This document shows, one piece after another, positions 14,975 through 36,789 of a stretch of 64,000 bases of DNA. A program made the translations under genes and the position numbers. This DNA is from Eledone cirrhosa. Lineage: Eukaryota. Every line of letters starts with the position of its first letter. The stretch's first letter is position 1. The notes under the pieces are model-generated. The model searched no databases, was not told the DNA's origin, and saw only the letters and a list, made by a program, of their open reading frames with translations. Location: the NCBI GenBank assembly GCA_964016885.1, contig OZ024742.1, forward strand, positions 283,774,001 to 283,838,000, written 5' to 3'.

Positions 14975-16350
14975 GAAAAATCCTGGTCTGTTTATTGAAT
15001 TTGGATTTTAACAAAAATGCAATCTATATGAAAGTGAGGCTGGAGAAGGAAGAAGGAAAGGAAAAATAAAATAAAACTACACATGCAAACACGCACACTC
15101 ACACAAAAGCATACATACACACATATATATATATATATATACATATACATACACTCATACATACACACACACATATACACATATATATGTGTATATAAAT
15201 ACACACAAACACATACATATACATACGCACATAAATATCAACACATCCATACATACATATATACAACCACACACACATATACACACACGTGACCATCTCC
15301 ACTGAAAGTTTTCATGAAATAGTCTTTTAAGACTATACAGAGCATTTGATGTTATTCCAAATTGAAGGATAAGTGTTTCAAACTTTATTTTATCATGAGT
15401 TAAAGGTCTATAGATTTTTCCCTGGATTTTACTAAATTCTGTGGATGAATTTATATCCTGATTCTCTTTTGAGATGAGTTTGAGTTATTTTTCCTAAATC
15501 TTTCGTTAACTACTTTTCCCATCTTGACGTTATAGTCGCATATATGTTATAGAATGCCGTTAGCTTCTTGCTAAAACAATCTCTATACCTCTCATTTATA
15601 CATATACATATATATATATGTGTGTGTACAAGCATACACATACACAAACATAGCCATATACATATACATACATACATACATGCACACAATCCTACATATA
15701 TACACACGTACATACATACACATACATAAATGCACTCCTCTACATATTCACACACGCAAATAAATATAAGAAAAAAAATATATATATATATATATAAAAA
15801 ATTTTTTGACAGCGATACAAACTGCAGGTAACTGGACAGACACGCGTGGTAAGTAATACACACAAATGCACGTATACATACGTACGAAATAGTAAATACA
15901 TACACACACTCGCACATAAATATACAAATACATAAACACATACATACACATACACAAATACATGCACAAACACGCACACGTATACAATTATACACACACA
16001 TATGTATATGTAATTATGTACATATATATATATATATACAGAAATATAAAAATACACGCACACATATGTATACATACACACACACATATACATATACATA
16101 CATAGCCATACAAATACGTACATATCATAAACACGCACAACCAAATACACACACACACGCACATATATATATATATATATATATATATATATACATACAC
16201 ATACATACACATATACATGTGTGTGTGTATAAAACTCAGTCTTAGATAATTCATATGAACCTTACATATATATAGTAGTAAGGTAATAAAGCAATAAGCA
16301 ACATAAAGCAATTATTCCATTCACCAATGGTTTCTTAAAAGCAAAAAATT

Positions 16351-17549
16351 TTGTGTGACTTAGTAGGATTATTCCTTCTCCACACCCTCAAAGAGAAATT
16401 TCCGTCCCATAATATCAGTTTATACCGTGATGACGGATTAGCAGTTTCTCATACCACCAACGGCCATAACCTTGATAAATTCCGTAAAGATTTAATCAAT
16501 ACTTTTGCTAATCTTAACCTTAAAATCACTATAGATACGAACCTTACTAATGCTAACTTTCTTGATATTAATCTTGATCTACTTACCGCCTCTTTTAAAC
16601 CCTATCATAAACCTAATGAAAACCTTAGGTATATACACAAAGAGTCTTGCCATCCCCCTATGGTTTTTAATAATCTTATTCCTAACATTAGCCGTAGGAT
16701 TTCTACCTTATCTTCGTCTATAGACATTTTTAATAAAGCCGCCCCTTATTATAATAAAGCCCTTAAGAACAGCGGTTTTACAGAAAAAATTTCTTATTTA
16801 CCCCCCCCCCCCCCCCCCCCCCCCCCCCCCCCCAAAAAAAAAAAAAAACTAACCACAATAACAGGAAAAGGAAGATTATTTGGTTCACACCTCCCTTCTC
16901 TCTAACTGTCAAAACTAATGTAGGCAGGAAATTCCTTGAACTCTTAGACAAACATTTTCCTCCTAATCAGAGATATTATAAGATATTTAATAGGAACGTA
17001 GTTAAGATCAGCTACTCTTGTTGCCCATCTATGAAGTTCAAAATCACCAGTTCAAACCATACGAGAATAAATCCAGGATGCAGTTGCAGGAAGCCGGATG
17101 AATGCCCATTGCAGGGTAAATGTAACACCAAATCTGTTGTTTATGAGGCTAAGATAACACCGGTAATCAACAACCAGCCAGCCAGGAGTGAGCGATATGT
17201 CGGTATGACCAAGGACAGGTTTAAAACCAGATTTTACTCACATGTCGCTTCTTTTAAGCACTCCGATAAACGAACATCGACGGCCCTCGCAAGTAAGGTG
17301 TGGGAACTCAAGGATAGTAACATCCCGTACTCTATTGATTGGTCTATATTAGACCATTCGAGGGAGTACCAAAGAGGCACAAAGAATTGTTCTTTGTGTA
17401 CCACAGAAAAGTATAGGATTTTGCTAAACTTGAGAGCCACTTCCGCCTGCCTTAACTCAAAGACTGAGATCTTCAGATGCTGTCCTCATCTGAAATCACA
17501 TCTGATCTGTAACTGGATTGACACTCCTATGATAAATCAACCGCCTTGA
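16351..17549 (+). pseudogene. PLE-1 RT/GIY-YIG ORF, 5'-truncated and frameshifted at a poly-C/poly-A run (16801-16848)
   Basis: CDLVGL..SLYRDDGL..NFLDINLDL..YHKP..SCHPP (PLE RT/thumb); CSCRKPDECPLQGKC linker; SVVYEA...RYVGMT..FKTRFYSH (GIY-YIG); CSLC..EK..I, C.H terminus. Confidence 0.9.
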
Positions 17550-18497
17550 ACTCCTTTCCTGCTCTTTACTTCTGCTACGGTTTTTATTTTGCTGAATCTA
17601 CGTTCTGTACTCTTGTGTATATATATTTTTTTCTCCCTTACCTCACCTTATATTTCACCTTTTCCTATGCCCCCCCCCCCCCCATATATTCTTTTTGCCT
17701 TGCCCTTCACATACCTATGTGTATGTGTATGTATATTTGTATGTGTATGTATATTTGCATGTGTATATATATATATATGTGTATATATATATATATATGT
17801 GTATATATATATATATATATATATGTGTATATATATATATATATATATTTGTGTGTGTATATGTATGTGTGTATGTAATTATATATGTGTGTGTGTGTAT
17901 TTTTATATTTATGTATATATATATATATATATGTATGTGTACATAATTACATATACATGTGTGTGTATAATTGTATACGTGTGCGCGTTTGTGCATGTAT
18001 TTGTGTATGTGTATGTATGTGTTTATGTATTTGTATATGTATATTTATGTGCGAGTGTGTGTGTATGTATTTACTATTTCGTACGTATGTATACGTGCAT
18101 TTGTGTGTATTACTTACCACGTGTCTGTCCAGTTACCTGCAGTTTGTATCGCTGTCAAAAATTTTTTTTTTATATATATATATATATTTTTTTTCTTATA
18201 TTTATTTGCGTGTGTGAATATGTAGAGGAGTGCATTTATGTATGTGTATGTATGTAAGTGTGTATATATGTATGATTGTGTGCATGTATGTATGTATGTA
18301 TATGTATGTGTGTATGGCTATGTTTGTGTATGTGTATGCTTGTACACACACATATATATATATGTATATGTAGGAGGTGAGTTTTATTGTAGTACAATAA
18401 AGCAATGCAGATATCGGATAAGAAGCACTCTACAATTTGTAGGACTGGAGTATACATAATATATAAGATCAAAAGATGGTTAAAGGAGTTCCATGTA

Positions 18498-35035: not shown

Positions 35036-35121
35036 ATATATATATATATATATATATATATATATATATATATATATATAATGTATAAAAATCAATACAA
35101 TATAATTACCTCATTACCAGA

Positions 35122-36789
35122 GCTAAAGAATTAGCTGTTTCTTTAAAAATAGATAATAGGACAGAAAAACTTGCTAAACGTTCTGCGTATATCACCCTTA
35201 AAGATCATAAACCCGACTTTATTAATCGTCCTAGTTGTAGATTAATCAACCCTGCTAAGACTGCCAGCAAAAAAAATTTAAATAAATTAAATACACACAT
35301 TAGAAGTAAGTCTAAATTACTCCAATGGATAAATAGCTCTTCCGTAGTACATTGGTTTAATAATATTAAAAACAAAATCAGTTCTAGATTCACCCAATTT
35401 GACATTGTAGATTTCTACCCATCTATTACTCAGACTCTTTTAGTGAAAGCTTTAAATTTCGCTAGAGGGTTCACTAATATCTCCGATATTGAAGAGAATG
35501 TCATCTTGCATGCTAGGAACACTCTACTTTTTAATGATAATGACACTTGGGTAAAAATATCTAACCCAGAGAACCCATTCGATGTCTCAATGGGCTCTTA
35601 TGACAGTGCCGAGGTTTGTGATCTGGTCGGCCTATTCCTCTTACATACACTTAAAGAAAAATTTCCTAACCATATTTTTGGGCTTTATCGCGACGATGGT
35701 CTAATACTTTCCCATACCACCATAGGCCATAACTTAAATAGATTAAAGAAAGACTTAATAAAAACCTTCGCTAGTTTTAATCTTAAAATTACTATTGACA
35801 CTAACCTTTCCAACGTAGATTTCCTAGATATAAACCTAGATTTGCCTACTGCTTCTTATAAACCATACCATAGACCTAACGAAAACTTAAAATATATAAA
35901 TAAAGGATCTTGCCATCCACCTATAGTTTTTAAAAACCTTATCCCTAATATTAGCCGTAGGATCTCCACCCTCTCTTCCTCAGAAGCTATTTTTAATAAG
36001 GCATCCCCCTACTATAATAAAGCCCTCCAAAATAGCGGCTTTAGCGAACCGATTAAATACATACCTAACTACACTAACTCTATTAAAAATAAAAATAGGA
36101 AAAGAAAAATAATCTGGTTCACACCCCCCTACTCTCTAGCAGTTAAAACTAATGTAGGCAAAAAATTCCTAGAACTCCTAGATAAACATTTCCCTAGAAC
36201 ACATAGATACTATAAGATCTTTAACAGAAACTGTGTTAAAATTAGCTATTCCTGCGGTCCCCCTATTAAGTCCTATATCCTCAACAAAATATCACCTAGA
36301 GAAAATCAAACTTGCTCCTGTAGAATCAAAAGTGAATGCCCATTACAAGGTAAATGCAACACCAAAGCCATTGTATATGCGGCTAAAGTGACAACCATCA
36401 GCAACAACCATCCAGCCACCAGTGAACGATATGTGGGTATGACGCAAGACAGATTCAAAACGCGTTATTACTCACATGTCGCATCCTTTCGACATCCAGA
36501 AAAAAGATTTACAACAGCTCTGGCTAGCAGAATTTGGGATTTGAAAGACCAAGGCATCCAATATAAACTAGATTGGTCAATTTTGAACCAATCTAAAAAA
36601 TATGCTAGAGGAACAAGAAAATGCACGCTCTGCATAAATGAAAAATTTTGGATATTGCAAAATCTCAAATCACCAAAGACCTGCCTGAACACAAAGACGG
36701 AAATTTTCACCAGTTGCCCACACACGAAATCACACCTGCTTTCCAGCTCATATAAACTTAACACACTTTCAGATACTTATCCTCCATAA
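35122..36789 (+). CDS. PLE-3 RT-GIY-YIG reading frame (5'-truncated, stop-free over about 555 codons)
   Basis: The frame of ORF 35443-36789 stays open upstream (AYITLKDHKPDFINRPSCRLINPAK; FDIVDFYPSI). It continues VSMGSYDSAEVCDLVGL, LYRDDGL, CSCRIKSECPLQGKC, AIVY...RYVGMT..FKTRYYSH, CTLC..EK, CPH. Confidence 0.9.
   Translation, partial: AKELAVSLKIDNRTEKLAKRSAYITLKDHKPDFINRPSCRLINPAKTASKKNLNKLNTHIRSKSKLLQWINSSSVVHWFNNIKNKISSRFTQFDIVDFYPSITQTLLVKALNFARGFTNISDIEENVILHARNTLLFNDNDTWVKISNPENPFDVSMGSYDSAEVCDLVGLFLLHTLKEKFPNHIFGLYRDDGLILSHTTIGHNLNRLKKDLIKTFASFNLKITIDTNLSNVDFLDINLDLPTASYKPYHRPNENLKYINKGSCHPPIVFKNLIPNISRRISTLSSSEAIFNKASPYYNKALQNSGFSEPIKYIPNYTNSIKNKNRKRKIIWFTPPYSLAVKTNVGKKFLELLDKHFPRTHRYYKIFNRNCVKISYSCGPPIKSYILNKISPRENQTCSCRIKSECPLQGKCNTKAIVYAAKVTTISNNHPATSERYVGMTQDRFKTRYYSHVASFRHPEKRFTTALASRIWDLKDQGIQYKLDWSILNQSKKYARGTRKCTLCINEKFWILQNLKSPKTCLNTKTEIFTSCPHTKSHLLSSSYKLNTLSDTYPP

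Follow-up and report, generated by a model that had tools for sequence, protein, structure and literature searches.

In a 64,000-nucleotide stretch of the Eledone cirrhosa genome (assembly GCA_964016885.1, contig OZ024742.1, positions 283,774,001 to 283,838,000 of the forward strand; hereafter, the window), we identified about a dozen Penelope-like elements (PLEs), nested in TA tracts and spread over the region from 14.9 to 38.2 kb. A typical insertion consists of a tailed arm and an inverted arm, the latter stopping at a natural TA 75-100 nt before the tail end, and each family carries near its 3' end a type I hammerhead ribozyme (HHR), recognized by motif scan and folding from its core boxes, three helices and NUH triplet. 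The inner ends of the arms, where the two meet, respect a sharp upstream limit in each of five families sampled (the ceiling), and these ends probably mark where the element's own RNA begins, the point at which the reverse transcriptase (RT) would run off. Judged from the genomic sequence, such an RNA start is very probable for families B, C, PLE-1 and PLE-3, and is also the explanation we favor, with less assurance, for the PLE-4 group. Among the families sampled, the ceiling lies inside the HHR only in the PLE-4/F group.

A sequence-only reading of the window had proposed that the inversion breakpoints of several PLEs fall inside the HHR, and that ribozyme hairpins or the nearby cleaved RNA end set the point of template switching or second-strand priming. 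Our sample was obtained by searching the genome with tail patterns, so that it is not selected on the breakpoint, and by taking the first listed places in order. Tail matches numbered 1,813 for PLE-1, 13,649 for the PLE-4 group, 356 for PLE-3, 5,207 for family B and 10,734 for family C, of which 92, 74, 30, 51 and 72, respectively, were mapped, all on contig C1 of the 3.0-Gb genome; the window itself belongs to contig C3. Removal of seven rows (duplicates or locus edges) left 312 insertions; 21 rows were hand-corrected from the junction strings. Tailed arms extending beyond -170 numbered 113, and the 347 nearer ends form the counted set. Positions are counted from the HHR cut, which is predicted from sequence, with negative values upstream.

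The ceilings lie at -41 in PLE-4, -70 in PLE-3, -108 in PLE-1, -124 in family C and -138 in family B. In PLE-4, 120 of the 131 near ends are in the HHR, 87 of them between -44 and -35; for the ends between -170 and +30, the corresponding figures are 120/126 in the HHR (50% expected, P = 1e-28) and 87/126 in the 10-nt window at -41. Stem II holds 112 of the 131 by our own count from the end lists, in agreement with the site named by the sequence-only reading. The other families accumulate ends further upstream: 44/80 near ends of family C are at -124 (44/70 between -170 and +30), 19/43 of family B at -138 (19/39), and 6/8 of PLE-3 at -70, just 5' of stem I. PLE-1 ends are distributed from -108 to -59, with 10/79 at -108 and none between -170 and -111. 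Only 22/216 ends of these four families are in the HHR (PLE-1 8/85, PLE-3 2/8, B 3/43, C 9/80), and PLE-1, B and C are below the uniform expectation (about a third), with 8/79 (P(less) = 2e-6), 3/39 and 9/70 ends, respectively, between -170 and +30. Thus, the anticipated departure from uniformity is strong, with the clusters upstream of the HHR in most families; breakpoints within the HHR exceed chance in the PLE-4 group only and are under-represented in PLE-1, B and C.

Further families were inspected by hand. In PLE-5, a hand count over 30 loci gave 17 ends between -137 and -120. Family F, a PLE-4 relative without a long reference, was sampled by similarity, since the exact pattern matched the window copy only; 30/40 matches, read by eye, have nothing upstream of the homologous -41. 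Genome-wide, 35,316 PLE-4-type pieces reach -40 and 5,599 reach -46, a drop that partly reflects ordinary mutation across six additional bases. The distance from ceiling to tail varies by family, from about 140 to 270 nt, and a fixed RT processivity was rejected as the cause of the ceilings because these distances differ. A splice acceptor at -41/-40 was likewise rejected, there being no constant upstream exon.

The pile-up might also be inherited from a few palindromic master copies or be an assembly artefact, which we consider very improbable. The short pieces are indeed very abundant (13,649 tail matches against 36 for one variant of tail plus 5' untranslated region (UTR)), and a few duplicated loci were present and were removed from the sample. 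However, the junctions vary from copy to copy, the ceiling is common to several subfamilies and a diverged relative, and the joints are present in separately assembled contigs too. In the contigs of one public run, depth changes tenfold in a step and joints between opposite strands occur at -42 to -39; these contigs are of unknown kind, may be the assembly's own source, and bear only against an assembly artefact.

Four of the five ceilings carry a mark that would be expected of capped RNA (published accounts are cited here and below from the parts of the papers available to us). At the C, B, PLE-1 and PLE-3 ceilings, the cDNA has an extra C beyond the template in 23/31 ends compared to 40/216 other ends (Fisher P = 1e-9, hand-corrected rows left out), and, among junctions with a true insert only, in 15/19 at ceilings compared to 12/79 elsewhere. 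Symmetric junctions typically have the form C...G, each arm contributing one C. At full-length 5' junctions of L1, an extra G has been attributed to the cap (PMC11702581), and the extra C at the ceilings is thus the imprint expected from a 5' cap. Furthermore, every ceiling is a pyrimidine followed by A, and the BBCA+1BW initiator consensus (PMC5287114), with a chance of about 1% per position, is fully matched in PLE-1, B, C and one PLE-4 subfamily. Drosophila Penelope is known to start its transcription within the pseudo-long terminal repeat (pLTR; PMC2377424).

Stem II of PLE-4 has a TATA-like box as its 5' arm. The box is present in 28/28 intact stems (one with a substitution), the set comprising those caught by one pattern and including some pairs of arms of one locus, and lies 29 (4 stems), 30 (5) or 31 (19) nt upstream of the ceiling; the functional TATA window in mouse is -32 to -29 (PMC1779604). 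The box is retained in 7/28 copies in which the paired 3' arm is altered. No TATA-like box was seen by eye in the other families.

Several observations weigh against equating the ceilings with RNA starts. The ceilings were defined on the same data on which they were tested, PLE-1 ends spread over 50 nt, and family D has no ceiling, with about 6/13 near ends in its HHR (hand count). A second sharp PLE-1 end at -91, perhaps a second start site (L123, L138, L139, L151 and L439; extra C in 8/9), was chosen after the fact. Some C calls come from junctions without an insert, where the base may be part of the partner arm instead. The initiator consensus is missed at -1 by PLE-3, PLE-5 and the other PLE-4 subfamily, which have only the pyrimidine-A. 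The main weakness for PLE-4 is that its sample has no C excess (7/30 ends at -41/-40, P = 0.62). Finally, the long copies ignore the ceiling. PLE-4 copies with the tail and one 5'-UTR variant gave 36 matches, and 15 of the 30 examined run at least 1.3 kb into the open reading frame (ORF); a 5' pLTR ending at the ceiling was found in 0/12 long PLE-4 copies and 0/12 independent long PLE-3 copies, and of nine long PLE-3 copies extending as far as the HHR, four end within it. This is contrary to a simple unit-length mRNA template, so that a second RNA pool has to be assumed.

The missing C in PLE-4 leads to an alternative that we regard as improbable, namely that a nuclease cutting in stem II, or a start without a cap, produces the fixed end at -41 in place of capped initiation by RNA polymerase II. 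A sharp end without the extra C and the division of ends between -41 and -40 are what such a cut or start would leave. The TATA-like box at canonical spacing and the initiator-like base argue for polymerase II, as does the C...G form of one window junction (27060-27071). A run of T residues terminates RNA polymerase III. Such a run just past the cut would halt this polymerase before the tail, and a polymerase III origin is disfavored.

The hairpin proposed by the sequence-only reading would act through stem II or other HHR helices that stall the RT or promote template switching, possibly only soon after initiation, when the enzyme is less processive. The concentration of PLE-4 ends in stem II, in a family without the cap imprint, is consistent with this idea, as is a ceiling base predicted by folding to be paired in one PLE-4 subfamily. 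So are several HHR ends in family D and in long PLE-3 copies, and the PLE-1 loop cases: both window cases are at -31, that loop holds the center of L137, and jumps at it are present in L044 and L024. Any minor hotspot at the PLE-1 stem II loop would rest on the sample, in which 89 insertions include two such ends, both from one event, and one internal jump. However, all long PLE-4 cDNAs that reach stem II cross it (12/12), and stem II is crossed in 14/17 of the 5'-UTR-bearing set versus 7/56 of the tail sample (P = 1.5e-7). The pile-up also comes beyond the stronger lower helix of stem II, when that helix has already been passed, and is equal in a subfamily with a weaker stem II (-9.1 versus -14.6 kcal/mol). 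In PLE-1, B and C, the HHR is depleted of ends, and the ceilings of these families and of PLE-5 are 50-80 nt upstream of it. As a general cause, the ribozyme hairpin is not supported by these results, and stalling is an unlikely explanation of the pile-up overall. A PLE-4 stall restricted to early elongation may occur, and hairpins may have a small influence in addition to the main rule, as in family D, the long PLE-3 copies and the PLE-1 loop cases.

The other proposed cause, the ribozyme-cleaved RNA end, is largely refuted as the main determinant of the breakpoint and retains hardly any probability. Across the five families, ends within 3 nt of the cut number 8/347, to which one long PLE-3 event (L250/L251) and one family D copy can be added; this count is no higher than the density of tailed-arm ends just downstream, and nearly all pieces have an uncut junction. 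Moreover, HHR cleavage is dispensable for the Poseidon element PAc in vitro (PMC11167929).

The relation between the two arms bears on how the second arm is made. Most arm pairs duplicate the same stretch, and adjacent, non-overlapping arms, the L1 twin-priming pattern, are in the minority (11/61 in PLE-4). In these 11 insertions, out of 61 with two arms, the inverted arm reaches stem II and the tailed arm begins only downstream of the cut. Thus, the tailed arm lacks sequence that the inverted arm holds, which argues that the arms are separate cDNAs. The arms mostly share subfamily variants, with one clear exception (L088, arms of different subfamilies) in a comparison of 17 insertions, one of which (L163) was mis-extracted.

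Alternatively, the second arm could arise by self-priming, or snap-back, of one strand at a palindrome. Self-priming on an antisense template has been proposed for Adineta Penelope (PMC3846280), and snap-back has been observed for R2 cDNA (PMC11371274). The many symmetric junctions, several of them at short natural palindromes, and the shared subfamily variants of the 17 pairs are what snap-back would give. It is hard to reconcile with the sequence missing from the tailed arm, the extra C on both arms of one junction and the different subfamilies of the L088 arms; junctions seldom include the natural 5' arm of stem II, and the ceiling is left unexplained. Snap-back is thus a doubtful general mechanism that may account for some symmetric junctions.

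Some individual loci have unusual arms. L031 and L032 are tailed PLE-1 pieces that share one junction and face each other with their tails across a single short TA tract, an arrangement that might be a duplication or an assembly effect. In L353, L357, L368, L371 and L376, long PLE-4 arms end at +17 to +32, beside the second priming site; L371, with an inverted arm from -42 to about +18 and a direct arm from +19, resembles classical twin priming. A family I copy (L339:1290-1500, oriented to the tail) has dense A-to-G changes over the hammerhead region, as from RNA editing before reverse transcription.

Taking the ceilings as RNA 5' ends, the insertions could be formed as follows. A promoter in the pLTR would start a capped RNA at the ceiling, and the RT would initiate internally at the two tail boundaries, 60-270 nt from the RNA 5' end, on both nicked target strands. 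With the first tail 140-270 nt from the cap, priming there would yield short run-off cDNAs on both sides. Both cDNAs would run off at the cap, often copying it as C, would lose a few bases from their ends by trimming, and would be united head to head by end joining. The HHR would contribute position only: the PLE-4/F promoter would overlap stem II, such that the RNA begins without the catalytic core. Since the long ORF-bearing copies ignore the ceiling, they would come from a different RNA pool, either a read-through tandem or a cut-and-circularized RNA; a circular RNA template has been proposed for tandems (PMC4209133).

A wider proposition, which we advance tentatively and rate a little below an even chance, combines these elements. 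The core promoter of the highly amplified PLE-4 family would reside in stem II, with the TATA-like box in the 5' arm and the start base in the 3' arm, and the mRNA would be devoid of the catalytic core; tens of thousands of palindromes would be paired run-off cDNAs, the full-length copies would stem from a separate, probably circular, RNA, and inverted pLTR junctions in general would be a fossil 5'-end library mapping PLE starts. Speculatively, RNA starting at -41 (window 25582-25630) would keep the substrate half of the ribozyme and could be cut by a downstream copy in a dimer-type fold.

How the inverted and tandem PLE structures form is named as an open question in two accounts (PMC8557442 and PMC11167929). 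If the interpretation is correct, the most common PLE product would be two short cDNAs, each extending to the RNA cap, internal initiation in vitro would be tied to genomic anatomy, and self-priming on an antisense template would be disfavored. It would also give exact predicted start sites for six families, place promoter and ribozyme in one helix, and the disregard of the start site by the long copies would offer a way to study the proposed circular template. Earlier work has already described inverted arms, tails, HHRs in pLTRs and the U3-A8 core. Our literature search found no paper that links the inner ends of PLEs with start sites, cap imprints or a stem II promoter; the supplements of PMC8557442 and PMC11167929 (Fig. 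S2, genomic ends) were outside this search and may bear on novelty.

Among the most similar known elements are the C-terminal EN+ PLEs of the Hydra clade, EN being the endonuclease (Craig et al. 2021, PMC8557442), which have an RT followed by a GIY-YIG-type EN, the CxCX5C linker, DKT, no CCHH, a canonical HHR, (TA)n targets, an inverted 5'-truncated arm and a tail. The tails are 30-40 nt there and about 75-100 nt here, and inner ends and start sites are unmapped in that account. For PAc (Frangieh et al. 2024, PMC11167929), the RT initiates internally at two sites bounding the tail, both target strands are extended, 5'-shortened RNA gives shorter products and HHR cleavage is unneeded; however, that system is in vitro and from another clade, and the account does not relate inner ends in the genome to start sites or cap imprints. 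The Drosophila virilis Penelope promoter (Schostak et al. 2008, PMC2377424) likewise starts transcription inside the pLTR, but is TATA-less, with a downstream promoter element and an intron, and the account reports neither overlap with an HHR stem nor a role in the inversion point.

L1 twin priming (Mendez-Dorantes et al., PMC11702581) shares the priming of a second reverse transcription from the other target end, end joining and the copying of the cap at full-length ends, but L1 inverted arms barely overlap, whereas here most arms duplicate one stretch and both would reach the RNA 5' end. The inverted pLTRs of Adineta Penelope (Arkhipova et al. 2013, PMC3846280) also show head-to-head arms, junction palindromes and, in one pLTR, TATA and initiator-like motifs; self-priming on an antisense template was the explanation there, whereas our data favor two cDNAs from sense RNA. 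The PLE hammerheads surveyed by Cervera and de la Pena (2014, PMC4209133) include type I HHRs in pLTRs, the U3-A8 core variant and many solo or opposite-strand motifs, but that account describes no stem II promoter and puts solo motifs down to truncation.

The window elements themselves resemble the Hydra type in the features listed for that clade (PMC8557442). Translations of PLE-1, PLE-3 and PLE-5 contain a single ORF with an RT and then a C-terminal GIY-YIG-type EN, as read from motifs; a Pfam search gave no match for six PLE segments, and the RT and EN calls rest on these motifs. The CxCX5C linker precedes the EN in PLE-1, PLE-3 and PLE-5, and was seen by eye for the PLE-4 family in L063. 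The EN of PLE-1 and PLE-3 has no CCHH but has CxxC and CxH near the C-terminus. PLE-5 has DKT, with RWR in place of RWK, in a region that other window copies lack. TA tracts follow nearly all tails, consistent with a (TA)n target. An Rfam scan listed no hammerhead family, only microRNA models, on palindromes.

The five ends cited by the sequence-only reading are all inside HHR motifs, at -31, -26/-24, -8/-6, -41 (both arms) and -31, and the idea that inner ends are non-random was borne out by the clustering in the family samples. Because HHR ends are scarce in their families, the PLE-1 and PLE-3 cases among them are atypical. In PLE-1, the inverted, untailed arm (14888-16352, minus strand) abuts the tailed arm (16352-19384, plus strand), which is 5'-truncated in the RT part of the ORF and continues through RT, CxCX5C linker, GIY-YIG-type EN, 3' UTR and terminal HHR to the tail. 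The breakpoint at 16352 (-31) is in a stem II loop, as stated, but the segment 16296-16350 is the inner end of a 1.46-kb inverted arm rather than a short separate piece, and the HHR in question is a second, internal and degenerate one of the 3' UTR rather than the terminal one. The 3' UTR of the PLE-1 family has two hammerheads, the inner of which has GUG at the cleavage triplet and fails NUH; in the window copy (14888-19384), this inner HHR is kept in the inverted arm, and the direct arm lacks that segment. The terminal type I HHR is at 19220-19284 (plus strand, predicted cut after 19275), and the ceiling (-108), the predicted transcription start, is at 19168, 50 nt upstream of the HHR. Probe mapping of 19 long PLE-1 loci showed junctions scattered across ORF and UTR. 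A PLE-1 family mini-insertion (33571-33673) combines a 34-nt tailed piece (33571-33604, minus strand) and an untailed piece (33606-33673, plus strand); the latter, previously placed at 33612, starts at 33606, that is, -31.

In PLE-4, the tailed short arm (24140-24264, minus strand) has its inner end at 24264 (-26 to -24), at the base of the 3' arm of stem II, with 2 nt of microhomology with the ORF. The untailed long arm (24263-25636, plus strand) comprises the EN half of the ORF, the 3' UTR and a U3-A8 HHR with a long stem II, with the predicted cut after 25622; the TATA-like box is at 25552-25559, within the 5' arm of stem II. The ceiling base A(-41) follows 30 nt later at 25582 and is the predicted start in stem II. 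A sixth HHR-internal end, absent from the sequence-only reading, is that of the solo tailed family F piece (26012-26126, minus strand), which starts at the homologous -41 at 26126. In the PLE-4-group insertion at 26920-27092, the tailed arm (26920-27059) and the inverted-arm stub (27072-27092) both end at -41 and flank a 12-nt insert (27060-27071) whose first base is C and last base is G; these are the arms that meet in the cited palindrome at 27038-27092.

The untailed inverted piece of PLE-3 (35081-35122, minus strand) ends at 35122 (-8 to -6), in the stem III loop, with 2 nt of microhomology, and its tailed arm (35121-38217, plus strand) has the ceiling (-70) at 38034, the HHR core at 38046 and the predicted cut after 38103. 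Outside the HHRs in the same region are three ORF-side junctions, the C, D and E palindromes and the family B ends. The palindrome at 18470-18789 and PLE-5 had been set aside as exceptions; both are outside the HHR, but they follow the same rule as PLE-4, with ends at their own family ceilings. The former belongs to a nested family C palindrome (18370-18800), in which both arms end at -124 (18632/18633), about 60 nt upstream of its HHR. The nearly full-length PLE-5 (27100-30914, minus strand), with RWR, DKT and CxCX5C, has its ceiling at about -133 to -137. In the family B insertion (33785-35042; inverted arm 34809-35042), the ceiling (-138) is at 34847 (plus strand) and 34059 (minus strand). 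The family D palindrome (19561-20235) has a U3-A8 HHR; its center, some 230 nt from the cut on the upstream side, lies outside that HHR.

Two further palindromes are located in the window. At 22116-22796, a family E palindrome has a degenerate hammerhead-like motif, with the center far upstream of the motif, and at 26783-26905, a family I mini-palindrome is centered well downstream of the minimal hammerhead of this family, which has 5,769 tail matches genome-wide. Beyond the PLEs, 39694-57167 contains unrelated retrotransposon ORFs with RVT_1 domains, clustered and partly duplicated and inverted, and 58825-60588 is a tandem duplication of nearly identical units, its period being about 650 nt.

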